This document shows, piece by piece, positions 19,806 through 36,764 of a stretch of 64,000 nucleotides of DNA (its first letter is position 1; every line of letters begins with the position of its first letter). A model generated the notes under the pieces. That model searched no databases and had not been told where the DNA came from. It saw nothing but the letters and a program-made list of their open reading frames with translations. Where the stretch lies: assembly GCA_000999025.1 (NCBI GenBank), contig LCFM01000005.1:71087-135086 (forward strand). Direction: 5' to 3'. The stretch is from Parcubacteria group bacterium GW2011_GWA2_43_13. Its GTDB lineage: Bacteria > Patescibacteriota > Patescibacteriia > UBA9629 > GWA2-43-13. The translations under genes were made by a program, and so were the position numbers.

Positions 19806-20477
19806 ATGAACAATCGTCTTTTTAGTGTGCAAGATGTGATAAAACCGCTTGTATCGAGTTGGGGAATGCTTGTGCTTGGCACAATGCTTTTTGCGTTGCT
19901 CGTGGTTGGTATTACGCTTATTCAGCCACTGAAATATAGCTCAACGGTTCGGCTTCTTGTGATTCAAAAATCAGACAGCGTTGTTGACCCGTATACATCT
20001 TCTCGCGGAGCGGAAAAAATAGCTCAATTGATTACCCAAATTGTGCATTCTGATTCTTTTATGGAAAAGGTTGTGAGTTCAGGGTTTCAGGTGCGAGATG
20101 ATTATGGTTCTGATCTTGATGCACGGAGAAAAAAGTGGAATAAGACCATTGAAGCGCGGCAGGTTCCGGAAACAGCAATTATTGAATTGTTTGTGTATCA
20201 CATTAGTGTTGAGCAGGCGCGCAATATTGTAAAAGCGGCATCAACTGCATTGCAAACAAAGGCAAGTGAATATCACGGAGCAGGGGAAAATGTGCAGTTG
20301 CGCGAGATTGACGGAGCTGTTGTTTCTCGTTTCCCTATAAAACCAAATGTTATTTTGAATGCTATTGCAGGAGTGATTATTGGGTTGTGTGTAAGCGGTG
20401 GGTTTATTGTCGTGCGCGCGCGAAAACGTGCTGATATGAATGAGGCAGTGCGGATTCGGGTGATGGGGGATGTGTAA
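19806..20477 (+). CDS. Wzz/chain-length-determinant-like membrane protein
   Basis: It has an N-terminal transmembrane segment with a Wzz-type motif (SSTVRLLVIQK) and a C-terminal transmembrane segment. Confidence 0.6.
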   Translation: MNNRLFSVQDVIKPLVSSWGMLVLGTMLFALLVVGITLIQPLKYSSTVRLLVIQKSDSVVDPYTSSRGAEKIAQLITQIVHSDSFMEKVVSSGFQVRDDYGSDLDARRKKWNKTIEARQVPETAIIELFVYHISVEQARNIVKAASTALQTKASEYHGAGENVQLREIDGAVVSRFPIKPNVILNAIAGVIIGLCVSGGFIVVRARKRADMNEAVRIRVMGDV

Positions 20478-20552
20478 CACACCCCTGTATCCCCTCTCAA
20501 GAGGGGATGTCGTCCGCACTCCCTCCTTGAGGAGGGGTTGGGGGAGGTGTTA
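20478..20552. repeat. Family B composite MITE-like element with terminal inverted repeats ACACCC...GGGAGGTGT and two internal hairpins (CCCCTCTCAAGAGGGG; CCCTCCTTGAGGAGGG)
   Basis: The sequence is read directly; it marks the left edge of the high-GC island. Confidence 0.85.
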
Positions 20553-20720
20553 TTGGGGGGATGCAAATGTGCAGGAATATACAATCGCATATTGGTAATG
20601 TGCCATTGTATATCTCTGCAGAACCGTGTTTGTAAAACGGAAAGCAGGGATTGTTTCATTGACAATTTCGTTTTTTTCGTAACAAGGCGCTTCGCGCGCC
20701 GTCACAAGGAGCAATTTCCC

Positions 20721-21440
20721 ATGATAAAGGGGATCCTTCTCGCTCTCGTGGCGCTCCTCGGAGCGCCGGTCTCGGGGTTCGCCGGCGATTACGCCGGATT
20801 CCTGTTCTCGACCGAGCAAACCCCGTACGACGAGCAATCGTTCGTGTCGGGTGTCTTTCTCGGTACGAAGCAGGAAAGTGGTTTCTCCGGTTCGCTCGCC
20901 GTCGGCGCGTTTCAACCTCTACAGGAGGTGACGCGCCAGAAGTCCGACATCGCGGTGATCCCGCGAGTCGGGTTCTCCTATGGCGCGTTCGCGACGTCGT
21001 TACGGATTTTCGCTTCGCCGAAGAACGCGTACCACGGTACGCTGGGCGGCGAACTCTCGATACCTACGGAATGGCCGATTGATGTCGTCATTGACGGTGG
21101 GTATACGTTCGGATGGGGATTGAACTCCCCTGACGGACGATACCGTCTCGATGGCTTGAGCGTCGGCACTGGTGTCGAGTTCGGCGGCGGGTCTGTACGC
21201 GCTAAAATCCTTGGCACATTCGAGGCATCCAACGCCTCAGTAATGTCCAAGGGCAAGTCGGCGGTTTCCACCGCTCGACACTGGCACGTCGGTCCACAGA
21301 CAATAATCGTGTTTCGACCCGAAGGTTCAAACTGGTGCATTCAGCCCTCGATTGGGGTTGGTGTCATCGGGAAGAACCTGAAGGGAGAGGAACTCGATCC
21401 GGAATTCTCGTTCGGTTTCCGGGTCTTCACCCGGCGGTAA
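20721..21440 (+). CDS. Secreted Gly-rich protein, putative outer-membrane beta-barrel-like (high-GC island gene 1)
   Basis: It has a signal peptide MIKGILLALVALLGAPVSGFAG, a repeated amphipathic beta-strand pattern, and a C-terminal FSFGFRVF. GC is about 62-65% against about 45% in the flanks, and the RBS AAGGAG precedes the ATG. Confidence 0.5.
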   Translation: MIKGILLALVALLGAPVSGFAGDYAGFLFSTEQTPYDEQSFVSGVFLGTKQESGFSGSLAVGAFQPLQEVTRQKSDIAVIPRVGFSYGAFATSLRIFASPKNAYHGTLGGELSIPTEWPIDVVIDGGYTFGWGLNSPDGRYRLDGLSVGTGVEFGGGSVRAKILGTFEASNASVMSKGKSAVSTARHWHVGPQTIIVFRPEGSNWCIQPSIGVGVIGKNLKGEELDPEFSFGFRVFTRR

Positions 21441-21452
21441 GGAGTCACGGCG

Positions 21453-22695
21453 ATGAGACGTTTCTCATATCTCGGATTGGCGCTCGTATTCGTCGTCGGG
21501 CTGGCCGGGTGCTGGCCCGACTCTGACATTGACAACACCGAAGTGCCGACCGGTCCGCTCACGCTCAAGGTAGACACCAAGAGCGTTGAGCAGATTGCGT
21601 CGCTCATGCAGAGTGGTGCGCTTGCGGCACCGCCTGCGCGGCCTACGAAAGTCAAGGCGACAACGCGTTGGTTTGACAACGCGAATGTTCGCCAATCGGC
21701 ACAATCAGAGGCGAGCATCGGCGAGCTGATTACAGTCGCTCGCCCCCTCGACCGTTCCTATATCGTCAATGTCGCCGACATGGACAACCGGTCACTGACC
21801 GGGATTGTTCGTATGGCGACTCGGGATGGGCTTCCGAAAGCCGTAATCCCGCAACGCGCTTTTCTTCCGATGATGGAAGGGTTGGTGGTCGCAGAGAAGG
21901 TGGACGGTTCGTTCGACTTCCCTACGGCGCCGATCCAACCAGTCGTTGGTACTGGCGTTGACGGGAAAATCTTCATCCTCGAGTTCGAGGTTGAGGTTCC
22001 TGTCGCGACGGTTACCGCCGGCGGAAACGCGGACACGTTGGTCGCGAGCGCGACCGTGTCCCACGCTCTCGGCGATTCTAGATGCGAAAATTCGGGTTCG
22101 GGTACTCGGCACACGCGACGACGCTGGCGTGATCACGGTGGCCACAGGGGAGTGGGTTACTCTCCCCAAAGTGGACGCTACGATCACTGTGTCTATGGCG
22201 TGGGCGAATGGGGTGATCGTCCCTACGCCTGTAACTCCTGTTTCCGGATTCCGCTGGGAGCTGATCCAAGGCGCCCTCGATCTGCTTTACGCGGCAGATG
22301 GGGGCGGAGGAACTCCCAATCCTCCTACTGGAGGTGCCACTATCGAGGACATCGGCGGAAAATGGCAGATTGCAGGGATCACTGGGGCCGGCAATCTGGG
22401 CAAGAACGTCGCGATGTCCGAGGTTTTGCAGGTTGAGGTGATGTGGAAGGCGGATCCGACCGCTAACCCAACCCTCATCCCTGCGACATTCGCAGTCGGA
22501 GTTGACGGGAAACTGTCAGCGACGACTGCCGATATCGTCCCGCGAGGAGGGGTCGGGAACTTTCGATTCTACCTCAAAGACGGATCGCAAGCGTGGTTGA
22601 ACCGGGATTCGGTAACGAAGATCGGTGCGATACGTTTCGCGAATGTCGGTGGGGTGGAAGGGTTCGCAACCCCCTTGACTAACTCTCACGAATGA
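21453..22695 (+). pseudogene. Lipoprotein (lipobox VGLAGC) disrupted by a +1 frameshift near 22075-22081 (high-GC island gene 2)
   Basis: Frame 0 reads ...ATVSHALGDS and then an Arg-rich nonsense tail. The protein-like continuation ...DAKIRVRVLGTRDDAGVITV... is in the +1 frame and runs to 22695. Confidence 0.6.
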
Positions 22696-23408
22696 AAGGG
22701 TGTGTCGTGAAAGTAAGGATTCTCGCGCTCATGTTCACGTTCGTCGTCGGGCTGGCCGGATGTTGGCCCGGAGCGGACACGCCGTCCGCCCCGCCGATTG
22801 ACGACGGCGGATCCGGCGGGGACAACAGCGACGGATCCGGTGGGGGAGGTGGCGTCATCGTTGGAGACAACGACGCCGCTGAGCTTGCCGGATTCGAAAA
22901 AACTTTCGGGACAGAAACCACGTCGGTGTTCGTGTCGTCATCCGACGGCATGGACACCAGGAGCTATGGCCAATGGCGGAAGGATTCCGCATTTGGTGCC
23001 CCCGCGGCATCTCGGGCTGAGATCGAATCCGTCATCGCGGCCGGTGTCTCTGTCGGGCTCCGGATTGCCGGACCCGACGGCAAGCAGACCGCGACGACCC
23101 CGGCAGGGATCGTTTCATGGTTCCCTGGTGACCGGATGGTCGTCAAGACCTCCGGAATCACCGGCGAGCCCATCGAGACGAAGTATTTGCGCGGGGGGCT
23201 CGAGATTGACCCCGCCACCCGAGTTGGGGAAGGAGCAAACTTTGTCGTCTACCAAAAGGGTAGCGGCCAAGTGCTGTACTGGCTCCTCCTCCACGGCGAT
23301 CCGGATAAACCGGTGCCGTACTTCCGCATCTTCGGCGCGGCGGATTGGATGATCTCCAACCGCAGTGTCGCGGGCAAGCTGGAGTACGGATTCTTTAAGC
23401 GAGAATGA
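22692..23408 (+). CDS. Lipoprotein, paralog of the previous gene (same FVVGLAGCWP signal/lipobox; Gly/Ser/Asp-rich linker) (high-GC island gene 3)
   Basis: The signal-peptide region is nearly identical to the upstream gene, and the GC is high. Confidence 0.6.
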   Translation: MKGCVVKVRILALMFTFVVGLAGCWPGADTPSAPPIDDGGSGGDNSDGSGGGGGVIVGDNDAAELAGFEKTFGTETTSVFVSSSDGMDTRSYGQWRKDSAFGAPAASRAEIESVIAAGVSVGLRIAGPDGKQTATTPAGIVSWFPGDRMVVKTSGITGEPIETKYLRGGLEIDPATRVGEGANFVVYQKGSGQVLYWLLLHGDPDKPVPYFRIFGAADWMISNRSVAGKLEYGFFKRE

Positions 23409-23429
23409 CGCAACGTCATCTCTCACATC

Positions 23430-23490
23430 AACCCGTTCAACTGTGTGCTGAAAACGTTCAGTATTACAGTTGACGGGTTTATTTTTTTAT
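23430..23490 (+). terminator. Terminator after the island (AACCCGTTCAACTGT ... ACAGTTGACGGGTT followed by TTTATTTTTTT), with a nested CTGAA-AACG-TTCAG hairpin
   Basis: The stem-loop plus T-run is read directly. Confidence 0.65.
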
Positions 23491-23561
23491 TGTATAATAT
23501 TTTGTTTTACATGGCCTCCTCAATCCTTCCTTTCGAGAGGATGTAGGGGGTGTAGAGACGT

Positions 23562-23607
23562 GGCGGTGCCACGTCTTGTCGGAGACGTCCCATCGGGACG
23601 TCTCTAC
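23562..23607. repeat. Family A element (GTAGAGACGTGGCGGTGCCACGTCTTGTCGGAGACGTCCCATCGGGACGTCTCTAC), preceded by a family B fragment (23525-23561)
   Basis: The sequence is read directly; it marks the right edge of the island, upstream of the ligase-like gene. Confidence 0.85.
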
Positions 23608-23616
23608 ATACAAAAT

Positions 23617-25206
23617 ATGTCTTCATTTTTTAAAATATATTGGCAGTGGATTGCTATAGGGTTGGTCGCGTCTGGAGGAGTTGTATTGATAGGAGGGAAA
23701 ACAGCTCTTATTGTTTTTGTGTTGGTTGTTATTTCCGCCACACTGTTTATCAAACCAATGTGGCTGATGTATCTATTAGTGCCGTCGCTGTTTTTAGAAG
23801 CAGAGCAGTTTTCAATTTATTTTGGCAACTGGCGTGGGCGCGGGTATCATTTTTTGATTGGAGTGTTGGTTGTGAGGATGGTTTGGGAATTTATAAGCAA
23901 GAGAATAACACCTTCCGCCCCTTCGGGGCACCTTCCTCAAGGAAGGAGCCGTCGAATCCCCTCTCGAGAGGGGGTAGGGGGTGTGTCTGGGTTGGACAAG
24001 GCGTTGATTGCGTTTTTGTCAGTGCAGGCGGTTGCGATTTTGGTTTCGCCTGATAAAATGTTCAGCATAAAAATTTGGGTATTGCAGGTGTTACTTACCC
24101 TGCTGTTTTGGTGTGTTCGATATTTTGTCAAAACATCCACAGAATGGAAACGTTTGCTGAATATCTTTTTAATATCAAGCGTTGTTGAGGCGTTAATCGG
24201 GTTTTGGCAAGTGTTTGCGTTTTATCTTCAAAAAACAACTGGCATAGTTGTGCGCTGGGGAGAGGTGTTTCACGCGCAGATTTTGCAATTTGGTAGGCCG
24301 TACGGCACATTTGTTGAAGCGGACTGGTATGGCGCGTTTATGGCAATTCCATTGATGATGAGTGTTGTTTTGATGGCAGGCGCGCAGTCGAAAAAAACGC
24401 GTGCAGTGTATGGGGTATTAGGTATGGTTTTTGGTATTGCAGTAATCATCTCCGGTGTGCGTGCTGCATGGATCGCGGTGATTGTTGCGAGTGTAGTTGG
24501 TGTGTTTGTGTTGCGGGGCACGAATGGGGCACGAACCCGCCGAATCGGTGGGCGAATACCTCACCCCCCCCCTCTCCTTGTAAAGGAGAGGGGGACGACG
24601 ACACCTCCCTCCCTCCCTCCTCAAGGAGGGAAGATGTCGCATGTATTATACGGAGAGTATAAGCATTTGGTGGGGTTAGGCAGTGTGTGCGCTTTGGTTA
24701 TTGTGGTTCTACTCGCAATAGCATCGCCTACATGGGTTGGGCAGATCGGCGAACGATTTATTAGTATATTTAACCCTTCTACATGGGCGCATGAGCCGCG
24801 GGTCGCGACAACTCAAAAGGCGTTTGAATTGATTGCGCAATCGCCGATTATTGGTCATGGTCCGGGTAGTTATAAAATTTTAGGGATTGTGCCTGATGTT
24901 GATTCATCGCAGTATGATTATTATGGCGTTTATCCGTATTTGACGAATTATTTTTTAACGGTGTTGCATGATTCAGGTATTATCGGTTTTGCTGTGTTTT
25001 TGTGGTTGTTGTGGGAAGGGGTGAAGTTTAGGGCAAGATCTTATAAAGGAGAGGGGGCGGCGGTTGTGATGGGGGTGGTGGTGCTGATGATTGCATATTT
25101 GATTACAACCGGGTTTTGGTTGGGAATGACATGGTTTTTGTTTGCTTTATTATGCACAAATAGCTCACGAACCCGCCGAATCGGCGGGCGAATGGCTCAC
25201 GAATGA
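23617..25206 (+). CDS. O-antigen ligase/polymerase-like (Wzy_C-type) polytopic membrane protein with three in-frame repeat insertions
   Basis: It has multiple transmembrane segments. The repeats are translated in-frame as ...PSAPSGHLPQGRSRRIPSREGVGGVSG..., ...RGTNGARTRRIGGRIPHPPPLLVKERGTTTPPSLPPQGGK... and a C-terminal ...SRTRRIGGRMAHE. Confidence 0.6.
   Translation: MSSFFKIYWQWIAIGLVASGGVVLIGGKTALIVFVLVVISATLFIKPMWLMYLLVPSLFLEAEQFSIYFGNWRGRGYHFLIGVLVVRMVWEFISKRITPSAPSGHLPQGRSRRIPSREGVGGVSGLDKALIAFLSVQAVAILVSPDKMFSIKIWVLQVLLTLLFWCVRYFVKTSTEWKRLLNIFLISSVVEALIGFWQVFAFYLQKTTGIVVRWGEVFHAQILQFGRPYGTFVEADWYGAFMAIPLMMSVVLMAGAQSKKTRAVYGVLGMVFGIAVIISGVRAAWIAVIVASVVGVFVLRGTNGARTRRIGGRIPHPPPLLVKERGTTTPPSLPPQGGKMSHVLYGEYKHLVGLGSVCALVIVVLLAIASPTWVGQIGERFISIFNPSTWAHEPRVATTQKAFELIAQSPIIGHGPGSYKILGIVPDVDSSQYDYYGVYPYLTNYFLTVLHDSGIIGFAVFLWLLWEGVKFRARSYKGEGAAVVMGVVVLMIAYLITTGFWLGMTWFLFALLCTNSSRTRRIGGRMAHE
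23908..23984. repeat. Family B composite element (ACACCTTCC...CCTTCCTCAAGGAAGG...CCCCTCTCGAGAGGGGG...GGGGGTGTG), in-frame in the ligase-like gene
   Basis: Sequence read directly. Confidence 0.85.
24524..24640. repeat. Compound insertion: family C (CACGAACCCGCCGAATCGGTGGGCGAAT) plus family B (CCTCTCCTTGTAAAGGAGAGG; CCCTCCTCAAGGAGGG), in-frame
   Basis: The sequence is read directly; a second family C copy lies at 25163-25202. Confidence 0.85.
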
Positions 25207-25214
25207 GATGACAT

Positions 25215-26549
25215 ATGAAGATTTTACAAATAGATAAATTTTATTATCCAAAATACGGCACTGGAAAACATGTGTTTACTTTGACGCGGGAATTAGAAAA
25301 ACAGGGCCATACGGTGATTCCTTTTAGCATGGAGGATGAAAAAAACGAACCAACGCCGTGGTCAACGTATTTTGTAAGCAATGTTGATGTTTCAAAAATA
25401 TCGTTTTCCTGGAAAGGAATAAAAATCGCGTTTCGTATGATCTATTCATTTGGGGCGCGAAGGAAAATTCGGGAATTGATAGAAAAGGAAAAACCAGACA
25501 TCGCGCATATCCATTTAATTCATCACCATATCTCTCCATCCATTTTATATGAATTAAAAAAACAAGGCATTCCGATTGTGCAAACAGTGCATGATTATAA
25601 ATTGATTCATCCGAATTATTTTATGTGGTGCAATAACGCGCCATGTGAAAAAGTTCGTAAACATCGGTGGAATAAATTGATTTTTCATCGTTGTATGAAG
25701 CATTCGTTGGTCGGGTCAATCTGGCTTGGGATTGAGACCACGATCCATGCTCTTATAGGTGCGTATAAAAAGAGCATTGATGTGTGGATTGCGCCGAGTG
25801 AATTTGTCAAGCGGATGTTGGTGGAGGGTGGGTATCCGGAGGAGAAGATTGTGGTGTTGCCGCATGCCTTGGATATGCACGAATTACTCACGAATGATTA
25901 CGAATTGCGTACAAATAACACCTCCCTTCGTCCCTCCTCAAGGAGGGAGCCCAGTGTTCCCCCTCTCAGAGAGGGGGGAGGGGGTGTGTCAGGGGTGGAT
26001 GGGTATTTGTTGTTTTTTGGACGTTTGTCTCCAGAAAGGGGGGTTGATCGGTTGTTGGATGCTTTGAAAGAAATGCCAGATATGCCGTTGATTATTGCGG
26101 GCGATGGCGAAATGGGAGCGCAACTTAAAGACCAAGTAAAAAAGAATGGACTGCGGAATGTTGAATTTGTTGGATATAAAAGCGGGCAAGAATTAAAACA
26201 GTTGATTCATAATGCACGGGCTGTGGTGGTGCCAACTCTTTCACACGAAATTTTTGGTATGTCCGCATTGGAGGCAATGGCATTAGGCAAGCCGATTATC
26301 GCATCACATAGAGGGGCATTGCCTGAATTAGTTGAGAATGGTAAAAATGGCTGGCTGATTGATCCTGAAAACAAAGATGAATTTCGTATGGCGCTTAAAG
26401 AATGTATGAGTCGTGATGATCTTATTGAACAGTTTGGCAGGGCATCTCAACAGAAAGTAAAAGAGTTGACAATTAATAAATATTGTGCCAAAATAGTCGG
26501 TTGTTATTCAGAGTTAATTACAGCAAAATATGGCAGAGAATCATCATAA
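25215..26549 (+). CDS. Family 4 glycosyltransferase with an in-frame repeat insertion
   Basis: The protein has the GT4 fold (EX7E-type C-terminal region GMSALEAMALGKPIIAS). The repeat at 25920-25988 is translated as ...TSLRPSSRREPSVPPLREGGGGVSG... Confidence 0.8.
   Translation: MKILQIDKFYYPKYGTGKHVFTLTRELEKQGHTVIPFSMEDEKNEPTPWSTYFVSNVDVSKISFSWKGIKIAFRMIYSFGARRKIRELIEKEKPDIAHIHLIHHHISPSILYELKKQGIPIVQTVHDYKLIHPNYFMWCNNAPCEKVRKHRWNKLIFHRCMKHSLVGSIWLGIETTIHALIGAYKKSIDVWIAPSEFVKRMLVEGGYPEEKIVVLPHALDMHELLTNDYELRTNNTSLRPSSRREPSVPPLREGGGGVSGVDGYLLFFGRLSPERGVDRLLDALKEMPDMPLIIAGDGEMGAQLKDQVKKNGLRNVEFVGYKSGQELKQLIHNARAVVVPTLSHEIFGMSALEAMALGKPIIASHRGALPELVENGKNGWLIDPENKDEFRMALKECMSRDDLIEQFGRASQQKVKELTINKYCAKIVGCYSELITAKYGRESS
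25920..25988. repeat. Family B composite element (ACACCTCCC...CCCTCCTCAAGGAGGG...CCCCTCTCAGAGAGGGG...GGGGGTGTG)
   Basis: Sequence read directly. Confidence 0.9.
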
Positions 26550-27717: not shown

Positions 27718-27725
27718 TAGCGGTT

Positions 27726-27755
27726 ATAGAGAGACGCCCCAGGGGGGCGTCTCTA
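27726..27755. repeat. Family A element (TAGAGAGACGCCCCAGGGGGGCGTCTCTAC) between convergent GT4 and folD
   Basis: The sequence is read directly and may act as a bidirectional terminator. Confidence 0.85.
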
Positions 27756-28658
27756 CGGTTTTGTGATATTGAGACAATTATTCATAGTATTTTTAAGGAG
27801 AAGTGCTACTGTAACCGGACCGACACCGCCAGGTACTGGAGTGATCGCTCCTGCGTGCTTTTTTAGTGATTCAATATCAGCATCTCCTTTAATTGCCGTA
27901 GTTCCGTTATGTTCAATTCTACTAATGCCAACATCAATAATAATGGCATCTTTTTTTGTATATTCTTTTGTGAGAATATGAGGTTTTCCAAGAGCGATGA
28001 TAAGAATATCGTACTGCACACATTTTTTATTCAGCTCTGTAAAATGGTCTGCTTTAATGTTTTGGCGCGAGAGGAGGGTGGCAAGGGGAATAAACAGAAT
28101 ATCTGATTTGCACATAATTGCGGCGGATAACGGCACATCCTTACGCCTCTGGAGAGGGGATACGTCTCCCTTTCCTTTATAAGGAGAGTCCGCGAGCTGG
28201 CGGAGGGGTGAGGTGTTAAGCACATTTTGTAAACATTCCACCACACTCATCACGGTAACTGGTTGCGGGAAGGAAGGGTCTCCTAAGTGTTTGATATTTT
28301 CCGGATGAAATCCGTCTGCATCTTTATCCGGACGAATGCGTTGAATAAGTGTATCAGGATTAAGATGCCCTGGAAGTGGGAGTTGAACAATAATGCCGTG
28401 AATATCAGAGTCATTATTGAGAAAATCAATGCATTCTATGATATCATCTTGGCTATCAGTTGCTTTGAATCGGTACAGATGCGGGGTAATGCCTGCTTTA
28501 TCTGCTGTGTGAATTTTTCTTTTTACATATATCTCTGATGAGGGATCATTGCCAATCAAAATAATCGCAAGTCCGGGAGTCACATTGCGTTCGACAATAG
28601 TGCGCCTGATATCGTGCAAAATATCAGACGCGATTTTTTTACCGTTGATGATGTACAT
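27753..28658 (-). CDS. folD: Bifunctional methylene-THF dehydrogenase/cyclohydrolase with an in-frame repeat insertion
   Basis: It has the FolD N-terminus (ASDILHDIRRTI...GLAIILIGNDPSSEIYVKRK). The repeat at 28148-28218 is translated as ...[26 protein letters not shown]... Confidence 0.9.
   Translation of the reverse strand: MYIINGKKIASDILHDIRRTIVERNVTPGLAIILIGNDPSSEIYVKRKIHTADKAGITPHLYRFKATDSQDDIIECIDFLNNDSDIHGIIVQLPLPGHLNPDTLIQRIRPDKDADGFHPENIKHLGDPSFPQPVTVMSVVECLQNVLNTSPLRQLADSPYKGKGDVSPLQRRKDVPLSAAIMCKSDILFIPLATLLSRQNIKADHFTELNKKCVQYDILIIALGKPHILTKEYTKKDAIIIDVGISRIEHNGTTAIKGDADIESLKKHAGAITPVPGGVGPVTVALLLKNTMNNCLNITKP
28148..28218. repeat. Family B/D hybrid element (CTCCCTTTCCTTTATAAGGAGAG + TCCGCGAGCTGGCGGA)
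   Basis: Sequence read directly. Confidence 0.8.
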
Positions 28659-28768
28659 AAAATGTAAAAATCAAAAAGTAAAAAGCAACATAACAATGCA
28701 AAATGTGAAAATACAAAGTATGCGTACTCTATTTACATTTTGATTTTTACACTTTCATTTCTGATTTT

Positions 28769-30058: not shown

Positions 30059-30187
30059 AAAATTAAAGATGAAAAACAAAAAGTAAAAATGATGTATGTT
30101 GCCAAATGTCAAGTATCAAATTTCAGTTTTCAAATTATGGTACTTGGCGGAAATATTTGAAAACTGGCAACTGAAAATTGATATTTG

Positions 30188-31897
30188 TTATGAAGTTATA
30201 TGTTTAATCATATATATTTTTTCTAATTCATATCCTAATTTTTTATAGTATTCTCGTGTTCCAATGCCGGAAATGACAGCCATTTTTTTGTAGCCATGAT
30301 CTCGTGCAATGCTTTCTGCTTTTTGGATGAGTTGTTTGCCCAAGCCAGTATGCTGGGAAGTGTACACCTCTTTGCCGTTCAACGGGGTTAGTTGACCATA
30401 ACTATGCACTTCTCGTATGATAGCACATCCTTTAAGTTCTGAAATAAACGGATGGGTGATGTTATCTGGTAGGCGAAGGCGGAGAAATGCGTGGAGGATA
30501 CGGCTTTCGCCCCCCCTCCTGCCCGAGGAGGGGGTAGGGGGTGGTGGGAGGATATTTATTTTTTCATACCTCACCCTACCCTCTCCTATTTTAGGAGAGG
30601 GTGACGACGACGTCTCAAACGATAAAAAGTATTCTTTCCCGCCGGTTGTGTCAATCGGTTCAATGAAACATTCAGCGTTACTTGAATCAATAGATTGATT
30701 TCTTCCCAACTCCTCTCTGCATCGTATACATTTGCACAGCAATCCTTTTTTTTGCATGTGCGCTTGAATATGCTCGCGCAGATTTGAAATTTTTGAACCG
30801 GCAATAATACTGGTCGCCGGAATATCACGGATGAGTCGGGCAATACGGACGTAGGGTGGGATAATGGTATGTTTGACATGCGCAAGAAGGGTTATCAATT
30901 CATCGTCTGTGTATGGTTTCCATATACCATCGCGCCACATTTTTTCCATAATGGGCGTGAAAGAGGGGAGTACTGTGGGGTATATTTTCATTTCATCTGG
31001 TTTAAAATCCGGATGCTGGAAAAGTTCGTTGTACATCTCGGTATCTTTTTGGAGATTTGACCCTGGAAGGTTTGGCATGGTATGGTAATTGATTTTAAAG
31101 CCAGCGTCTTTGAGCCAACGCGTTGCATCACGAACCTGATCCCGAGTTTGGTCACGTTTAATAAGGGTGAGAACATCATCATGCGTTGATTGTACGCCTA
31201 ATTGCACGCGGGTCGCGCCAAGGGCGCGCATCCGTTTTATTTCTGTTTTTGTAATATGATCGGGCCGGGTCTCAAGAGTAAGTCCAACACATCGGTGTTG
31301 CGCTGTTTGGTTGATGTCATGCGTTTCTTTTAGTAGTTGATTATGGGATGAGCGGTATGGTGTACAGTGCGTAGTATCATAATGGAAAATAAAATCATTC
31401 ATTGCCTGAAAACAACGTTTAATAAACCATGTTTGATACCGGCGTGGGTAAAATGACCATGTCCCACCAAGTACAATAAGTTCGATTTTTTCCGGCCGAT
31501 GCCCATTTTCATAAAATGAGTGCAAACGGATGACAATTTGTTTATAGGGGTCAAATTGTTGTTTAAGCGCGCGTGCCGCGGCTGGTTCATTAGAGAGGTA
31601 GCTTTTGGGCATGCCACGCTCTGTAGGGCAGTACACGCACCTGCCGGGGCAAGGGAAGGGCTTGGTAAGCACAGTGACGGGTGCGACTCCTGAAATAGTT
31701 CTGATAGTGCGGCGTTTTAACATGTGCAAAAAAAGCGGGTCTGGCGTAACTTCTCCTTTTTTGATACGTTCATGGTAGTCCTTCAGTAGTGCCCGATTGG
31801 GTGGGATAGGGATATGTAAAGTACGCGCCCATTTGCGTTTTGCCGCATGGAGATCGTTTTTTGTATGGATTGTTTCGGAGAGAAGGTGGATAAGCAT
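30188..31897 (-). CDS. Elp3-homolog: radical-SAM plus GNAT acetyltransferase (tRNA carboxymethyluridine synthase-like), with an in-frame repeat insertion
   Basis: It has a radical-SAM CxxxCxxC (CPGRCVYCPTE) and a C-terminal GNAT fold. The repeat block at 30509-30620 is translated as ...SSSPSPKIGEGRVRYEKINILPPPPTPSSGRRGGESR... Confidence 0.8.
   Translation of the reverse strand: MLIHLLSETIHTKNDLHAAKRKWARTLHIPIPPNRALLKDYHERIKKGEVTPDPLFLHMLKRRTIRTISGVAPVTVLTKPFPCPGRCVYCPTERGMPKSYLSNEPAAARALKQQFDPYKQIVIRLHSFYENGHRPEKIELIVLGGTWSFYPRRYQTWFIKRCFQAMNDFIFHYDTTHCTPYRSSHNQLLKETHDINQTAQHRCVGLTLETRPDHITKTEIKRMRALGATRVQLGVQSTHDDVLTLIKRDQTRDQVRDATRWLKDAGFKINYHTMPNLPGSNLQKDTEMYNELFQHPDFKPDEMKIYPTVLPSFTPIMEKMWRDGIWKPYTDDELITLLAHVKHTIIPPYVRIARLIRDIPATSIIAGSKISNLREHIQAHMQKKGLLCKCIRCREELGRNQSIDSSNAECFIEPIDTTGGKEYFLSFETSSSPSPKIGEGRVRYEKINILPPPPTPSSGRRGGESRILHAFLRLRLPDNITHPFISELKGCAIIREVHSYGQLTPLNGKEVYTSQHTGLGKQLIQKAESIARDHGYKKMAVISGIGTREYYKKLGYELEKIYMIKHITS
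30509..30620. repeat. Double family B element (CCCCCTCCTGCCCGAGGAGGGGG ... CCCTCTCCTATTTTAGGAGAGGG)
   Basis: Sequence read directly. Confidence 0.85.
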
Positions 31898-31902
31898 AGG
31901 GC

Positions 31903-32040
31903 AATCCTAATCTACTAATACATCCTAATCTGCTAATACGAGTGGGATGTCTCGTCTGTAAAGATTGGGGTAAATATTGGGGTAAATATTGTATCTATAG
32001 CGTGTTATTTGTAGATTCGGATGAATTCGTATATTAGGAT
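31903..32040. repeat. Family E intergenic palindromic element (GCAATCCTAATCTACTAAT... / ...TGTAGATTCGGATG...ATTAGGATTG) in the divergent Elp3/Trm9-like promoter region
   Basis: The arms are read directly from the sequence. Confidence 0.75.
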
Positions 32041-32046
32041 TGATTT

Positions 32047-32829
32047 ATGTCAGTAGTAGAAATATATAACCAAATCGCTGCTCAATTTTCTAAAACCCGC
32101 AATAGAAGTTGGGTTGATTTTGATCTGTTTAAAAAAGTTATTCAGAGGCAAGTGGCAATTGTTAAACATCAATTGTCAGTGTTGGATGTTGGGTGTGGGA
32201 ATGGAAGGTTGTATTCGTTTTTTGTAGAGACGGGATTAACCCCGTCTCTACACTATAGAGGTATTGACGCAAGTGTAGGTATGATTGAGCAAGCGAAGAA
32301 GTGGTATCCGGAGTGTGATTTTCGCGTTGCTGATATGCGGGAAGTGCCATGTGATGATAACAGTTTTGATATAGTTTTTGCGATTGCGTCTTTTAACCAC
32401 ATGTTGACCAAGGAAGACCAAGAAAAAGCATTATCAGAAATATTTCGCGTACTAAAGCCGTGCGGGTATGTGTGCATGACAAACTGGAATTTATGGCGAT
32501 TGACATTAAAAGAAAAATCGTGGTGGTATTATGTGTTTTGTAGAGACGTGTCCCTGGCGCGTCTCATTCGGCGAGGTAAAGATGATGATTGTTTACAGAG
32601 AGACGCCGCAGGGGGTCGTCTCTGCGATCATTCCATGAGAGTTGTCTTGACCCGCTGGAACAACCATGAACTCCCATATTACGCGTTTACTTTACGAGAA
32701 TTAAAGCGCATGGTCAAGCAGGCTGGGTTGAGTGTAGAAACGGCATTGTATAGCAAAAACGGACACAAAGCGCATTGGTGGAATGGAAAAAATATCATAC
32801 TGATTGCGCGCAAAAAGCACTTGACATGA
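32047..32829 (+). CDS. Trm9/ALKBH8-like class I SAM methyltransferase with two in-frame repeat insertions
   Basis: The N-terminal motif IYNQIAAQFSKTRNRSW plus LDVGCGNGR is typical of Trm9-type methyltransferases. The repeats at 32224-32251 and 32539-32627 are translated in-frame. Confidence 0.65.
   Translation: MSVVEIYNQIAAQFSKTRNRSWVDFDLFKKVIQRQVAIVKHQLSVLDVGCGNGRLYSFFVETGLTPSLHYRGIDASVGMIEQAKKWYPECDFRVADMREVPCDDNSFDIVFAIASFNHMLTKEDQEKALSEIFRVLKPCGYVCMTNWNLWRLTLKEKSWWYYVFCRDVSLARLIRRGKDDDCLQRDAAGGRLCDHSMRVVLTRWNNHELPYYAFTLRELKRMVKQAGLSVETALYSKNGHKAHWWNGKNIILIARKKHLT
32224..32251. repeat. Family A element (GTAGAGACGGGATTAACCCCGTCTCTAC)
   Basis: It is a perfect palindrome inside the methyltransferase CDS. 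Confidence 0.9.
32539..32627. repeat. Two adjacent family A elements (GTAGAGACGTGTCCCTGGCGCGTCTC ... CAGAGAGACGCCGCAGGGGGTCGTCTCTG)
   Basis: The sequence is read directly inside the methyltransferase CDS. Confidence 0.85.
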
Positions 32830-32860
32830 ATTTTCATTTTGTTATGATGCGATTATATGA

Positions 32861-32967
32861 AAAGCCAATGGATTACTATTTTCTTTAGCACTCCTAACCT
32901 GACGTAGTCAGTCGGCTTTTCATACGTGGCGCAGTGTAAAAGATCCGACTGATGTCGGGTTTTTTGT
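32861..32967 (+). promoter_or_regulatory. Structured leader/terminator region upstream of the DAHP synthase gene (GAAAAGCC...GGCTTTTC outer stem, CTGAC-GTA-GTCAG inner palindrome, then CCGAC-TGAT-GTCGG followed by TTTTTT)
   Basis: The hairpins are read directly; the function is unknown (terminator of the upstream gene and/or an attenuator). Confidence 0.4.
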
Positions 32968-32995
32968 TCCTTTTTTATGAGGGGAGTTTATTCTC

Positions 32996-34141
32996 ATGAT
33001 TGTTCACATGGTTACCGGCATTGGATTGGGCGATGCTCGTGTCAACTGCGTAGTGGAAAAGGCAAAGGCATTGGGACTCAATGCAACGGCAAGAGTTGTT
33101 CATGGGACACATTTCGTTACCGTCGAGGTGTATGTTTTCGACAGTAACGGAAAGAGCGCTGGTGAGTTTTCGACGCATATTTTCGAGAATCTACCTGGCG
33201 TCGAAAGTGTGGCGCGGGTTACGCCGTCGGCGGTCAGGATGGCATGTACAAATCCTGATGATGCCAGGCGTGTTACTATCGGGAAGCATCAAATCGGTCG
33301 CGGTTTGCCGTGTCGGCTTATCACAGGACCGTGTACTGTAACGAGGGACGTTGGCCGATTGATTCCGATGATAGTAGATACGGGGGCGATGTGGATTCGT
33401 GGCGGTTGCTGGAAGCCACGAACCAGAGCCAATTCGTTTCGCGGGTTTGGTGTGTTGGCCGTTGAGTGGCTTCTCACTGCCGCGCGCGAGAACAACGTTG
33501 AAGCTATATTCATCGAAGTCATGGATACACAGCACATTGCCCAAGTGCGGGCAGTGCAAGAGTCCGTCGGCTTTGAAGGCGCGATTGTGCTTTGGGTGGG
33601 CGCGTGGACATCAAATCAGGCCTTGCTCGAAGCGCTTGGCAAGCAGGATAGATACACGGTGATGCTGAAGCATCATCCCTGGGATATCGGGATTGATGGC
33701 ATGATAACGCGAGCCGAATTCGTCCTTGCAGGAGAAATGGAATGGGATGAAAGAGGGGAGTTGATTCCAGAGGCAAGCACACCGCAGGGCAACAGCAATG
33801 TTTTACTGTGCGTGCGGGGAGTCAATAAACCCGAATCAAGCCGACATACCCTGTATCGGTTTATGCCGAATGCGGAATGGATCAGCGCACTTCACCAACG
33901 GTGTTGGGCACCTGTGGTTTGGGATCCGTCTCATATCGCTGGTCATACAGACCTTGTGTGGGGAGTTTTAGCTGAAGGGTTGAGATATCGGCCAGAAGCG
34001 GTCATGGTCGAATGTTGGTTCGACCCCAATGATCCTCGTAAGCCACTGTGCGATGCTGAACAGGCGATTCCGATGAACCAAGTGCCCACGTTGCTAAAGC
34101 TTATTGAGGGACACAACCAAAATCTCACAGAACAAGCGTAA
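32996..34141 (+). CDS. 3-deoxy-7-phosphoheptulonate (DAHP) synthase, type I-beta-like with an N-terminal ferredoxin-like domain
   Basis: The motif GGCWKPRTRANSFRGFG matches the KPRTS-PYSFQG signature of the DAHPS/KDO8PS family. An N-terminal domain of about 90 aa is present, and GC is about 53%. Confidence 0.6.
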   Translation: MIVHMVTGIGLGDARVNCVVEKAKALGLNATARVVHGTHFVTVEVYVFDSNGKSAGEFSTHIFENLPGVESVARVTPSAVRMACTNPDDARRVTIGKHQIGRGLPCRLITGPCTVTRDVGRLIPMIVDTGAMWIRGGCWKPRTRANSFRGFGVLAVEWLLTAARENNVEAIFIEVMDTQHIAQVRAVQESVGFEGAIVLWVGAWTSNQALLEALGKQDRYTVMLKHHPWDIGIDGMITRAEFVLAGEMEWDERGELIPEASTPQGNSNVLLCVRGVNKPESSRHTLYRFMPNAEWISALHQRCWAPVVWDPSHIAGHTDLVWGVLAEGLRYRPEAVMVECWFDPNDPRKPLCDAEQAIPMNQVPTLLKLIEGHNQNLTEQA

Positions 34142-34156
34142 GTGATTGACTTTACG

Positions 34157-34197
34157 CAACCCCCTCTCGTATTCGTTTACGAGAGGGTTGCTTTATT
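34157..34197 (+). terminator. Terminator (CAACCCCCTCTCGTA-ttcgt-TACGAGAGGGTTG followed by CTTTATT)
   Basis: The hairpin is read directly, after the DAHPS gene. Confidence 0.6.
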
Positions 34198-34265
34198 AAA
34201 GGAGTTTTATTAGAATCAAAGGGGATTGTCGCCGAAGGGTACTCGGTTAGAGAATTTTTTTTTCT

Positions 34266-35633
34266 ATGCAATTAGATGAATCAATATTTAAGGCGTATGA
34301 CGTGCGGGGGGTATATCCTACCCAACTCAACGAGGAAATCGCGGAAAAGATGGGCAAAGCGTTTGCGGTGTTTATTAAACAGCAGGTCGGCAAAGAAGAG
34401 GGTATTCGGGTGGCGATGGGTAGGGATACGCGGCTTTCATCTCCTCAACTTTTTGAAGCCGCAATTGCTGGTATTCTTGCGCAAGGTGTTGATGTTGATG
34501 ATATCGGGCTTGTAAGCGCGGATGTGATGTATTTTACTGTCGGACATGGGGAGTATGACGGAGGCATGATGGTATCAGCATCTCACAACCCGAAAGAGTA
34601 TAATGGATTTAAAATGCTTTCAAAGGGTGTTAAATTCATCAGCAGTGTGTTTGGTCTGCCTGATATTAAAGCGTTGATTGTTAAAGATGAATGGAAAGAA
34701 TGTGCGCATGGCACGCGAACTCAAAAAAAGGTTGTTGATGATTATATTGATTTTGTTTTTTCTCATATTTCTGCCACAAAAATCAATCCATTAAAGATTG
34801 TAGTTGATACTGGCAATGGTATGGCAGGGGTTGTTGCGCGAAAGTTGTTTGCCAGATTAAAGGGAGAGTTTGTGCCCTTGTTTGAAGAATTAGACGGGAA
34901 TTTTCCTGGCAGAAATCCAAATCCATTAACTCCTGGCGCATTAGATCCATTATCTACAAAAGTAAGAGAAGTTCACGCGGATTTAGGCATTGCATTTGAT
35001 GCTGATGCCGATAGGTTGTTTGTAGTTGATGATACTGGTGCTGTTATTCGCAATGATTTGGTGTTGGGAATTGTTGCGCAGGTTGTATTGAGGTCTCATG
35101 CTGGCGGGGCTGTTGTATATAGTTTGAACTGCTCGCATACAGCTCCTGAAACAATTACAGAAGCAGGGGGACGGCCTGTCCGCGCGCGCGTTGGGCATAC
35201 ATTTATTAAAGAAACCATGAAAGCGGAAAACGCGGTGTTTGGCGGAGAAGCGTCTGGGCATTTTTATTTTCGTGAAAATTTTTATTCTGAATCAGGATTT
35301 TTAACTGCGTTGGTACTGATGCAGTATATGAGCGAGCAGGGGAAACCGCTTTCGGTATTGGCGCAAGGATTGGATCGGTACGCGTATCAGCCCGAAACTA
35401 ACCGCAGGGTAGAAGATCGCAGTGCTGTGATTGCGCGAGTAAAGGAAAAATATAACAATGGCCGTCAAGATGAAACAGACGGGTTGGTTGTAGAGTATGA
35501 TGATTGGTGGTTTTTGTTGAGGCAATCAAATACCGAACCATTAGTGCGGTTGGTTGTTGAGGCAAAGACAAAAGAGTTGATGCAGGAAAAAGTAAATGAA
35601 TTGCTTGATATCATCGGCGGCGAGCCGGAATAA
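34266..35633 (+). CDS. Phosphoglucomutase/phosphomannomutase
   Basis: It has the active-site serine loop SASHNPKEYNGFK and a Mg-binding DADADR-type motif (FDADADRL). Confidence 0.9.
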   Translation: MQLDESIFKAYDVRGVYPTQLNEEIAEKMGKAFAVFIKQQVGKEEGIRVAMGRDTRLSSPQLFEAAIAGILAQGVDVDDIGLVSADVMYFTVGHGEYDGGMMVSASHNPKEYNGFKMLSKGVKFISSVFGLPDIKALIVKDEWKECAHGTRTQKKVVDDYIDFVFSHISATKINPLKIVVDTGNGMAGVVARKLFARLKGEFVPLFEELDGNFPGRNPNPLTPGALDPLSTKVREVHADLGIAFDADADRLFVVDDTGAVIRNDLVLGIVAQVVLRSHAGGAVVYSLNCSHTAPETITEAGGRPVRARVGHTFIKETMKAENAVFGGEASGHFYFRENFYSESGFLTALVLMQYMSEQGKPLSVLAQGLDRYAYQPETNRRVEDRSAVIARVKEKYNNGRQDETDGLVVEYDDWWFLLRQSNTEPLVRLVVEAKTKELMQEKVNELLDIIGGEPE

Positions 35634-35636
35634 AGT

Positions 35637-35720
35637 AACCTCATCCTACCCTCTCCTTGTAAAGGAGAGGGAGATGACGACTCCCCCTCTCTGATAGCTT
35701 CCGCCAAAGGCGGATATGCC
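35637..35720. repeat. Family B element (CCTACCCTCTCCTTGTAAAGGAGAGGGAG ... TTCCGCCAAAGGCGGATA)
   Basis: The sequence is read directly, between convergent genes. Confidence 0.85.
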
Positions 35721-35765
35721 TATGGTAGTGGCGGATCAGGACGGGCATTTGTAAAGAAGAAGGGA

Positions 35766-36764
35766 TTACAACAATCCGCATTTTTGTTTTACCTCTTTTA
35801 TTGTTTGTTGTGCGATTGCGCGGGCGGTTTCTGTTCCATTCATGATAACCTCGGTAACATATCCTGGATTTTGTTCAAGATTTTTCCGTTTTGTTTGGAT
35901 TGGTTCTACCATGGCAATAACTGTATCTGCCACGGCGGATTTTAAATCTTTATATTGAAGCGTTTTTTCGTTATAGTGTTCCATCAGATTCGCGACAAGA
36001 GATGTTTCTGCTCCGCATGCTGTAAGGATAGTGAAAAGATTTTCCACGCCCGCAGGCATTTTTTTTGCGCCTGCAGAAGAATCAGTTACAGCACTCATGA
36101 TTTTTTTGCGAATAGTATCAGGATCTTCAAACAGGCCAATGTAATGTTTTTCACCACGGCTTTTGGACATCTTTTTTTCCGGTTCTGCCAAACTCATGAT
36201 GCGTGGAGTGGGAGTGAGCATGACTTTGGGCTCGGGAAATGTTTTGCCAAATAGTTTATTGAATTTGCGAGCCACAATGCGTGACAACTCAACATGCTGG
36301 GTCTGATCTTCTCCAACTGGTACGCCGATAGTTTTATATAGCAAGATATCTGCCGCCATAAGCACGGGATAGGTGAGTAGGCCTGCATTGATATTATTTC
36401 GATGCTGATCTGATTTATCCTTGAATTGCGTCATGCGTTCCAGTTCTCCGAGTGGGGTGATGGTGTTGAAAATCCACGCGAGTTCAGTGTGTTCCGGAAT
36501 ATGGGATTGGATAAAGATGTGGCACTTTTCAGGATCAAGCCCTGTAGAAAGGTAAGTGAGAATAAGATTTTTTACCCGTTCAGGCATGTCTTTTGGGTCA
36601 TATTCGATCGTCATTGCATGATAATCAACAATAGTGAAAAAGCACTCATATTCGTGCTGGAGGGCAACCCAATTTTTGAGCGCTCCTAAGTAATTTCCAA
36701 TATGCAACTCACCAGTTGGTTGCATGCCGGAGAATAATATTTTTTGAGAGGTGGAGGGGGGCAT
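35766..36764 (-). CDS. trpS: Tryptophan--tRNA ligase
   Basis: The class I motifs HIGN (TGELHIGNYLG) and KMSKS are present. Confidence 0.95.
   Translation of the reverse strand: MPPSTSQKILFSGMQPTGELHIGNYLGALKNWVALQHEYECFFTIVDYHAMTIEYDPKDMPERVKNLILTYLSTGLDPEKCHIFIQSHIPEHTELAWIFNTITPLGELERMTQFKDKSDQHRNNINAGLLTYPVLMAADILLYKTIGVPVGEDQTQHVELSRIVARKFNKLFGKTFPEPKVMLTPTPRIMSLAEPEKKMSKSRGEKHYIGLFEDPDTIRKKIMSAVTDSSAGAKKMPAGVENLFTILTACGAETSLVANLMEHYNEKTLQYKDLKSAVADTVIAMVEPIQTKRKNLEQNPGYVTEVIMNGTETARAIAQQTIKEVKQKCGLL

Follow-up and report, generated by a model that had tools for sequence, protein, structure and literature searches.

A mosaic family of short ACA-tagged hairpin repeats with in-frame copies in protein genes of a Candidatus Jacksonbacteria genome, and DUF559 as its candidate partner nuclease

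The 64,000-nt stretch of Parcubacteria group bacterium GW2011_GWA2_43_13 analysed here (contig LCFM01000005.1, positions 71,087 to 135,086; hereafter the window) very probably carries a family of short, non-autonomous selfish repeats, similar to repetitive extragenic palindromes (REPs) and MITEs (miniature transposable elements with inverted repeats) and putatively mobilised by proteins of the DUF559 family. About half of the copies lie inside open reading frames (ORFs), each of them stop-free, in frame and placed in a loop, a linker or a tail. Units have been gained, lost, swapped and eroded since this species diverged from relatives that share about 80% protein identity with it. The window encodes a FolD protein identical to that of Candidatus Jacksonbacteria bacterium RIFCSPLOWO2_02_FULL (GCA_001818055.1, contig MHJP01000013), a Parcubacteria genome of the Candidate Phyla Radiation (CPR) from the Rifle aquifer. 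This agrees with the reduced-genome lineage suspected in a previous reading of the DNA made without database searches (the sequence-only reading), which had proposed that elements resembling the Rickettsia palindromic elements (RPEs) are inserted in frame into protein genes. No earlier description of the unit sequences, of palindromic inserts in CPR or of DUF559 together with repeats was found in the full-text literature outside subscription journals; it appears that neither palindromic repeats lying in frame in a CPR genome nor a family of units flanking DUF559 genes has been described before.

The repeats are far in excess of chance. A scan for perfect hairpins (stem of at least 6, loop of 2-7, stem GC of at least 60%) found 56 in the window, against 11.6 +/- 3.3 in block-shuffled controls, and a repeat finder grouped them into families. 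Every element is also present in six near-identical assemblies (L001-L006), which come from separate samples or records and match the window at 99.9% identity or more over 13-21 kb; the sole differences at the elements are runs of N. Thus, the elements are not assembly artefacts. Among known RNA families, two tRNAs were the sole Rfam matches at gathering score in the window. Our census gave a total of 23 element loci. Of these, 11 are inside ORFs, the other 12 are intergenic or touch a gene end, and 18 of the total lie between 14 and 37 kb of the window. When folded as single-stranded DNA, most composites were more stable than their dinucleotide shuffles (z -2.3 to -7.6), the exception being the visibly eroded FolD copy (z -0.7).

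The basic unit is about 25-35 nt long and consists of a C-rich tag, a 2-5-nt spacer and a GC-rich hairpin. The tag is ACA followed by a pyrimidine run (ACAYC..., for example ACACCTCCC, ACCTCACCC and ACATCACCAC), and in the hairpin the 5' arm is made of pyrimidines and the 3' arm of purines. A unit may stand alone as a singlet, form a head-to-head doublet or a tandem array with others, or be nested in another, and composites thus reach 70-118 bp. Doublets with outward tags make the 70-80-bp ACACC...GGTGT elements at 20477, 23908 and 25918, whose ends are the terminal inverted repeats ACACC[TC]CCC ... GGG[GA]GGTGT, while the composite at 24524-24640 is built from tandem units. Small hairpins (GCCCCTTCGGGGC, TCCGCC..GGCGGA) are nested between a tag and its own hairpin at 23908, in the FolD copy and at 48623. 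With a strict tag-plus-hairpin definition, units were found in the window at 24601, 25918, 20521 (minus strand) and 28189 (minus strand), and none with a reversed-tag control; across loci, 64% of the tag matches are followed by a hairpin, compared to 5% in the control.

This anatomy changes part of what had been proposed. The sequence-only reading described one family of 70-115 bp elements; composites of that kind do exist, with the termini ACACCTCCC...GGGGGTGT and the internal hairpins as it described them, but they are mosaics of the 25-35-nt tag-and-hairpin units. Three hairpin types had escaped it: GTAGAGACG..CGTCTCTAC, TCCGCCAGCTGGCGGA and CCCGCCGAATCGGCGGG. All the copies it had listed are present, within a few bases of where it placed them (our refined positions are 25918, 28143-28214, 30503, 19606, 20477 and 48623), but its list of intragenic copies was incomplete, lacking those at 25037-25079 and 25150-25200 in Wzy, 14170-14231 in YchF, 32224-32251 and 32530-32626 in a methyltransferase and 60558-60585 in MutS. 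The loci inside ORFs are:

14170..14231, minus strand: 62-nt nested perfect palindrome of the GTAGAGACG..CGTCTCTAC type in ychF; encodes VETPPLGVSDEDAPLGRLYN; fold z -7.6.
23908..23984, plus strand: head-to-head doublet in the Wzy_C/O-antigen-ligase-like ORF, made of an ACA-CCTTCC tag, a nested GCCCCTTCGGGGC hairpin, a CCTTCC/GGAAGG hairpin, a CCCCTC/GAGGGG hairpin and a GGGGGTGT end; encodes about 20 extra residues (TPSAPSGHLPQGRSRRIPSREGVGGV); fold z -2.7.
24524..24640, plus strand: tandem composite in Wzy_C, made of a CCCGCC..GGTGGG hairpin, a ACCTCACCCC tag with a CCTCTCC/GGAGAGG hairpin and a ACACCTCCC tag with a TCCCTCC/GGAGGGA hairpin; insert of about 40 residues; fold z -4.9.
25037..25079, plus strand: remnant of a CCTCTCC/GGAGAGG unit in Wzy_C, its 5' half deleted relative to L008.
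25150..25200, plus strand: CCCGCCGAATCGGCGGG hairpin with CACGAA flanks, encoding the C-terminal tail of Wzy_C (SRTRRIGGRMAHE).
25918..25988, plus strand: head-to-head doublet ACACCTCCC...GGGGGTGTG in the family 4 glycosyltransferase (GT4) gene; about 24 residues in a linker; fold z -2.3.
28143..28214, minus strand: decayed three-hairpin composite in folD, made of a ACACCTCACCCC tag, TCCGCC..GCGGA, CTCTCC..GGAAAG and CCCCTC..GAGGCG; exact 72-nt (24-residue) insert; fold z -0.7.
30503..30620, minus strand: two-module composite in the Elp3-like radical-SAM/acetyltransferase gene, its units reverse to the gene; 34 residues; fold z -5.5.
32224..32251, plus strand: GTAGAGACG..CGTCTCTAC hairpin in the UbiE-type methyltransferase gene.
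32530..32626, plus strand: two GAGACG..CGTCTC hairpins in the UbiE-type methyltransferase gene; fold z -3.8.
60558..60585, minus strand: GTAGAGACG..CGTCTCTAC hairpin in mutS, in the linker before the C-terminal domain (position by alignment to E. coli MutS).

Comparison with orthologs revealed that the intragenic copies are insertions. Two syntenic relatives, L007 and L008, have FolD proteins 76% and 82% identical to that of the window, respectively. The window FolD has 24 extra residues; the L007 ortholog has none of them, the DNA alignment giving a clean 72-nt gap between ...AAC and AAAGATGTG, and L008 has a better-preserved 60-nt variant without the TCCGCC hairpin. The insert is also missing from more distant orthologs. 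It falls between residues ~150 and 158 of E. coli FolD, and in the AlphaFold model, whose mean predicted local distance difference test score (pLDDT) is 91.7, it scores ~51-53 and is flanked by a helix and by the NADP domain's first strand.

Note that the folD gene (27753-28658) also encodes CKSDILFIPL, shared by the window and its Jacksonbacteria relatives, where other FolDs have the dinucleotide-binding motif GRSNIVGKPM, and that the Jacksonbacteria FolDs lack four residues just after it. Cofactor use may differ in the Jacksonbacteria enzyme.

In Elp3, a 34-residue insert sits between the residues equivalent to 354 and 355 of the Dehalococcoides Elp3 structure 5L7J, and the same site has three different module sets in three related species, L008 having the CCTCTCC module only and L007 a single ACACCTCCCC..GGGGGTG unit. 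The Wzy gene was compared with its closest ortholog, that of L008 (P0122), and with another of 62% identity (P0123). The first insert (23908) is absent from the L008 ortholog and from distant ones, and P0123 carries a longer composite at the same site; the second (24524) is present in L008 with a 21-nt difference and absent from P0123 and distant orthologs. At a third site (25037-25079) L008 has a complete tagged unit, against which the window shows a gap of 30 nt in the DNA alignment, and the C-terminal tail hairpin (25150) is common to L008 and P0123, distant orthologs having other tails. The GT4 insert lies in the interdomain linker just before the C-terminal Rossmann domain, which starts at residue ~263, and L008 carries 72 nt (24 residues) more, nested inside the element. 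In the methyltransferase gene, the GAGACG hairpin at 32224 corresponds to a P/G-rich segment (SPLFYKEGVGGG) in L007 and L008, and the hairpins at 32530..32626 are common to L008 and different in L007. Compared with solved YchF structures, the ychF palindrome takes the place of a segment of similar length and adds none; it may have arisen by insertion together with a compensating deletion, or by conversion. The expectation that the inserts are missing elsewhere was thus borne out by the gaps in FolD, Elp3 and Wzy, and in GT4 the modules vary between relatives.

All the coding indels linked to elements are multiples of 3 (72, 12, 57, 60, 21, 30 and 72 nt), and one intergenic spacer differs by 45 and 56 nt from its counterparts. 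Moreover, every intragenic copy is stop-free and in frame, with the flanking protein aligned on both sides, just as had been claimed from the reading frames. This is what selection for a translated insert predicts, and excision would not require it. The consensus unit is open in three of its six frames, and the intragenic copies seen use open frames: ACA-CCT... in Wzy and in the Elp3 of L007, A-ACA-CC... (shifted by one) in GT4 and FolD, and the reverse orientation in Elp3. Since the unit is read in several frames and in both orientations, with no single conserved peptide, it is a DNA element and not a peptide module. The surviving copies do sit in loops or linkers (FolD, pLDDT ~51-53; GT4 and MutS linkers), as the sequence-only reading had it. 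However, these positions are explained equally well by selection after random insertion, and to say that the elements target surface loops overstates the evidence.

The loci that are intergenic or touch a gene end are:

15224..15262, plus strand: unit ACACCCCCC with an imperfect CCCCTCC..GAGGGG, upstream of xseA.
18546..18590, no strand assigned: long hairpin CACCCCGAC-TCCGCCAGCTGGCGGA-TGTCGGGGTG, upstream of the probable start of a family 2 glycosyltransferase (GT2) gene; the domain begins at residue 40 of the long ORF, and a 319-residue product is called in other assemblies.
19606..19667, no strand assigned: two-hairpin composite, CCCCTCC..GGAGGGG and CTCTCC..GGAGAG.
20477..20552, minus strand: head-to-head doublet ACACACCCC...GGGAGGTGT between wzz and a high-GC island; matches the exact 25-nt pattern described below on the minus strand; its first base is the last base of the wzz stop codon; fold z -2.3.
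23545..23610, plus strand: GGGGGTGT end, then two GAGACG..CGTCTC hairpins; the Wzy_C start codon lies just downstream.
27724..27757, no strand assigned: GAGACGCCCC..GGGGCGTCTC hairpin between the convergent glycosyltransferase and folD genes that overlaps the stop codon of folD and probably acts as a terminator in both directions.
34162..34187, no strand assigned: intergenic hairpin CCCTCTCGTA..TACGAGAGGG.
35637..35714, plus strand: composite downstream of the phosphoglucomutase gene, made of a AACCTCATCC tag with a CCCTCTCC hairpin, then a TCCGCC..GGCGGA hairpin; fold z -4.4.
36832..36860, no strand assigned: intergenic TCCGCCAGCTGGCGGA hairpin.
44562..44590, no strand assigned: TCCGTCGGCTGGCGGA hairpin, beginning at the last two bases of the stop codon of the upstream ORF.
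48623..48675, plus strand: composite of a ACATCACCAC tag, TCCGCC..GGCGGA and CTCCC..GGAGAG, just upstream of the probable start of uvrA, a gene identified by its UvrA Pfam domains.
56106..56139, plus strand: GGAGAGACGCATC..GATGCGTCTCTCC hairpin with a T-run after groEL, terminator-like.

Intergenic arrays also differ in their modules between relatives. At the 35637 site, L007 and L008 each have a different module set at the same place; at the position of 23545-23610, L008 has 11-nt periodic CACGAAT repeats instead; and in L008 the hairpin at 27724 is conserved. Over 50 nt, the copy upstream of uvrA (48623-48675) and the FolD copy (28165-28214) are 84% complementary, and when the upstream copy is read within the long uvrA ORF it gives a 17-residue peptide that is nearly that of the FolD insert. 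Its 3' arm AAGGAG stands at Shine-Dalgarno distance from the ATG at 48688 (window 48660-48690), and GGAGGTG, the complement of the tag core, stands at the same kind of distance from the ATG at 20563 (window 20536-20566). In 16S rRNA, CACCTCC, the tag core itself, is the anti-Shine-Dalgarno sequence.

A second hairpin family, (GTAG)AGACG-loop-CGTCT(CTAC), was found at 14178, 14205, 23556, 23582, 27730, 32224, 32539, 32600, 56110 and 60558. Every copy has the CGTCTC/GAGACG hexamer, and the sites are both in ORFs and in terminator-like intergenic positions. Its GTAG tag is the one typical of the REPs associated with RAYT (REP-associated tyrosine transposase) proteins.

The unit is not confined to this genome. 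We searched a species-representative genome collection (596 Gb) with the exact pattern ACACCTCCC-N5-CCCTCCTCAAGGAGGG, which has 25 specified bases, and obtained 46 loci, against a chance expectation of ~0.001 by our own arithmetic. All but three are in Bacteroidota, Ignavibacteriota, Kapaibacterium or Chlorobiota (here called FCB); the exceptions are one metagenome-assembled genome (MAG) of Gammaproteobacteria and two loci of one unclassified MAG, and none of the 46 is in the CPR representatives of this collection. The FCB unit is usually ACACCTCCCTTAATCCCTCCTCAAGGAGGGA, often with a partner ...TCCCCTTGAGGGGA..ATAGGGGTGT 20-100 nt away (doublets in L032, L035 and L040, for example). No target-site duplication was seen at 12 full FCB copies or at the filled-versus-empty FolD site. 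Long ORFs contain only 4 of the 46 loci, the other 42 lying outside them, and three of these four are at the same site of isoleucyl-tRNA synthetase (IleRS) in three Flavobacteriaceae genera, in frame as SLLEEGLREV. Since the unit is mostly intergenic in FCB, the high intragenic share is a trait of the Jacksonbacteria host genome, not of the element. The IleRS copies are at L012 7762-7791, L013 2378-2407 and L026 2711-2740, with an extra module in L013.

Clustering of the ORFs of the 46 loci pointed to a candidate partner. The largest cross-genome cluster was a 125-180-residue protein present in six loci, which belongs to Pfam DUF559 (PF04480; E 2e-28 to 2e-30) and has a Vsr-like PD-(D/E)xK fold. 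These six of the 46 loci contain seven DUF559 genes, all of them flanked by units on both sides, and in two of the seven the TAA inside the tag is the stop codon of the DUF559 gene. No other gene family recurs abutting units in the 46 loci, the annotated clusters being DUF559 and IleRS.

The reciprocal test, on 80 metagenome loci chosen by DUF559 homology as the sole criterion, gave the same association. A GC-rich hairpin was present within 130 nt in 70 of the 80 loci (on both sides in 48), and hairpin density was 6.8 per kb near the gene but, at distances above 300 nt, 0.85 per kb. These loci have a stereotyped layout: hairpin-GGGGGATGT, gene, ACATCCCCC-hairpin. The tags point towards the gene, and tandem arrays are frequent downstream. 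By the strict definition, 36 units faced inward and 6 outward, the background being 1 unit in 110 kb, and the upstream and downstream stems matched within a locus in 25 of 55 cases (7.9 expected). Note that most DUF559-flanking tags are ACAT, and a tag pattern limited to ACAC undercounts the association.

The DUF559 family is very large, with at least 7,997 database matches at E<=1e-10. The best 120 matches of a profile search were FCB-type and unnamed only, and have no bearing on CPR. Among these best 120 relatives, many are on contigs of 0.6-3 kb, as expected if flanking repeats break assemblies, and one named match is a Rickettsiales MAG. DUF559 proteins are often annotated as 'very-short-patch-repair endonuclease' or 'DNA methylase', the latter of which looks like a misnomer.

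The tag and the hairpin are related in sequence. After the constant ACA, the tag often mirrors the pyrimidine arm, that is, it is the parallel C.G/T.A complement of the purine arm, as in ACA-CCTCCCT-TAA-TCCCTCC-TCAA-GGAGGGA, in ACA-TCTCCCCT-AAA-TCCCCTCT-TCGA-AGAGGGGA and, in the window, in ACA-CCTTCC-...-CCTTCC-TCAA-GGAAGG. Among tag-selected units 55% are perfect mirrors, compared to 9.6% in non-cognate pairings; when all informative hairpins were taken and both strands read, 14.1% fitted the mirror, 6.6% a direct repeat and 2.3% a permuted model. Mirror and direct-repeat models score alike on low-complexity stems (CCCCC/GGGGG), and GAGGGG-type hairpins break the mirror rule. ACAT tags are found where the purine arm begins with A, and ACAC tags where it begins with G. 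Such a pattern would allow a possible intramolecular triplex, with the tag as Hoogsteen third strand (Py-loop-Py-loop-Pu).

These results suggest the following model. Insertion would not be frame-aware, and disruptive copies would be removed by selection; the survivors, whichever way round they lie and in more than one reading frame, would be translated into loops rich in P/S/G/R/E and would then decay, as in FolD. A structure-specific nuclease, not a DDE transposase, would copy the units in trans; a DUF559 (Vsr-like PD-(D/E)xK) protein is the best candidate for this role, and the position of such genes between inverted tagged units is analogous to that of RAYT genes flanked by REPs. Since no DUF559 gene is present in the ~73 kb of the Jacksonbacteria genome that can be read (the window and ~9 kb upstream), the copies here would be orphan or trans-dependent. 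In a broader form, which we offer tentatively and consider rather doubtful, the ACA-tagged units would be the substrates of DUF559 in a hitherto undescribed REPtron-like mobile class (Bacteroidota, Ignavibacteriota, Chlorobiota, CPR and many uncultured lineages), recognised via a triplex-like fold and remodelling essential enzymes in compact CPR genomes.

Could the inserts be something other than translated selfish repeats? If the P/S/G/R/E-rich segments were ancestral low-complexity linkers at the protein level, with an incidental DNA similarity, one would expect what is indeed seen at the MutS linker and the YchF segment, where orthologs have variable linkers of similar length. However, orthologs at 62-82% identity cleanly lack the inserts, which contradicts this idea for FolD, Elp3 and Wzy; the same DNA units are intergenic and occur in other phyla, and they are read in different frames and orientations with no conserved peptide. 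This makes an ancestral origin extremely improbable. Removal of the elements from the mRNA or the protein, in an intron- or intein-like manner that leaves the mature enzymes without them, could be imagined given that the composites fold stably, but is hard to reconcile with the frames and indel lengths described above, with elements of only 28-118 nt and with the absence from the window of any Rfam match at gathering score besides the two tRNAs. No intein motifs were noticed in the translated inserts, although no dedicated scan was run, and the FolD copy no longer folds (z -0.7) while its gene is intact; we regard excision as very unlikely. A better case can be made for hairpins that are primarily functional RNA or DNA signals (terminators, mRNA stabilisers or translation control), the intragenic ones being by-products: several intergenic copies do sit at the 3' end of a gene or lie where two genes converge (27724, 56106 with its T-run, 44562), a regulatory role being plausible for 27724 and 56106, the first of these is conserved in L008, and GGAGG/AAGGAG arms stand at Shine-Dalgarno distance from the starts at 20563 and 48688. 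This would leave unexplained the copies inside ORFs, the turnover between relatives and the cross-phylum identity of a 31-nt unit, and the same observations are compatible with selfish repeats that are sometimes co-opted, rather than with a true alternative. We therefore consider a primary signalling role improbable.

As regards the mobilising enzyme, the short terminal inverted repeats ACACC...GGTGT, and the presence in the window of an rve-family transposase gene (IS481-like, HTH_32 + rve, 41330-42382), would suit classical MITEs moved by a DDE transposase such as this one. But the copies inspected had no target-site duplication, singlets and tandem arrays are common, which is not MITE-like, and no DDE transposase recurs beside the units in the 46 loci, so we give this origin very little credence. 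REP or REPIN elements moved by a RAYT (Y1 HUH) transposase encoded elsewhere in the genome are a closer match, since unit size, singlet/doublet organisation, the lack of duplications and the intragenic copies all resemble those of REPs (PMC3733652), and the GAGACG..CGTCTC family carries a GTAG tag; for those hairpins a RAYT is conceivable. However, the tag of the main family is ACAYC rather than GTAG or CGTC, it is DUF559 and not a Y1 HUH gene that adjoins the units in other genomes, and no RAYT-like ORF was noticed in the window, where the Pfam scan covered 20 ORFs. For the ACA-tagged units, a RAYT is unlikely. As for the IS481-like gene at 41330-42382, it was tried as a partner and rejected: no terminal inverted repeats related to the hairpin units were found around it.

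Several points weigh against the interpretation of the repeats as selfish units mobilised through DUF559. We infer translation of the inserts from intact frames. Element presence/absence polymorphism was not seen among L001-L006, which belong to the same population, and sites with different modules in each relative fit an ancestral insert with remodelling and repeated insertion at a hot spot alike. By the strict tag-plus-hairpin definition, an inward unit is present in only 25 of 71 DUF559 loci. No DUF559 was found by tblastn in the window or in the Jacksonbacteria loci L001-L010, nor among the genes called in the ~9 kb upstream, and the DUF559 association lies in other phyla; the nuclease gene could be a cargo that lands in repeats, or could act against them. 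Finally, an unrelated family may be represented by the GAGACG..CGTCTC hairpins, of which at least two resemble ordinary terminators.

Several known systems resemble this one in part. RPEs are single elements of ~100-150 bp with a conserved encoded peptide, and they share with the present repeats the palindromes in a reduced genome, the in-frame presence in unrelated housekeeping genes, the retention in loops and the later decay (PMC10969869). In contrast, the elements studied here are built as mosaics from GC-rich units of 25-35 nt, which are read in both orientations and in several frames, are shared with distant phyla and have a candidate partner nuclease; the term RPE-like would describe an analogy of behaviour, not RPE membership. 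The REP/REPIN-RAYT systems have a 20-40-nt hairpin with a short end tag, singlets, inverted doublets and arrays, no duplications, occasional in-frame intragenic copies (including in repair genes) and a small gene flanked by inverted units (PMC3733652). They differ in that here the tag is ACAYC plus a pyrimidine run and mirrors the arm in many units, and the flanked gene encodes a DUF559 nuclease. For the nuclease, a precedent of a selfish, mobility-promoting role exists in its own Vsr/DUF559 clade, which includes the group I intron homing endonuclease I-Bth0305I (PMC3424549); that enzyme is encoded inside a group I intron, whereas the DUF559 gene is free-standing between hairpin units. MITEs such as Correia, ERIC and Nezha are likewise short, non-autonomous and bounded by terminal inverted repeats, and are sometimes fused in frame to host ORFs, but the present elements have no target-site duplication and no matching insertion sequence was found, and they show modularity and nesting at the level of the unit. 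In heterocystous cyanobacteria, palindromic mobile units of ~20-30 nt reportedly nest in one another and in short tandem repeats (Elhai and colleagues, 2008); those small dispersed repeats differ in lineage and sequences, and they are not known for frequent in-frame coding insertion.

These findings extend the Rickettsia-type tolerance of selfish palindromes inside essential proteins to the CPR, a group with little intergenic space, where unexplained protein inserts often hamper annotation and structure prediction. A near-exact unit in CPR and in Bacteroidota-type genomes is a marker of DNA exchange between these groups. In addition, the proposed link would tie the very large orphan family DUF559 to a defined DNA repeat, providing a testable hypothesis for its function and for a REP-like spread.

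Other features of the window deserve mention. The region 20001-23500 is an island of 54-56% GC, compared to ~43% elsewhere, with lipoprotein-like ORFs that have no Pfam match; it is bounded by the repeats at 20477-20552 and 23545-23610, and its right end is present in L008 at 86% identity. Four other assemblies of the population have 110 nt (112 nt in L001) that are missing from the window at 22080/22081, and this absence splits a 450-residue ORF (L002 14435-15787) into two frames that overlap, 21453-22436 and 21946-22695. The difference reflects a genuine deletion variant or else an error of assembly.

CACGAAT/TACGAAT motifs with 10-11-nt spacing lie immediately 5' of the GT4 element (25879-25906). 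In L008, the same motifs are present at the first Wzy site and upstream of the Wzy start (near 15100-15200), where the window has hairpin elements. The ACGAAT motif is not enriched over the window as a whole (44 occurrences vs 36 +/- 6). Lastly, intergenic repeats of the form ATTCGTAGATTCGGAT...ATTAGGATTG abut ORF ends at 31895-31938, 32006-32045, 44642-44699, 46363-46405 and 58602-58644; the first three are immediately upstream of start codons, and the repeats may be a promoter or operator motif.

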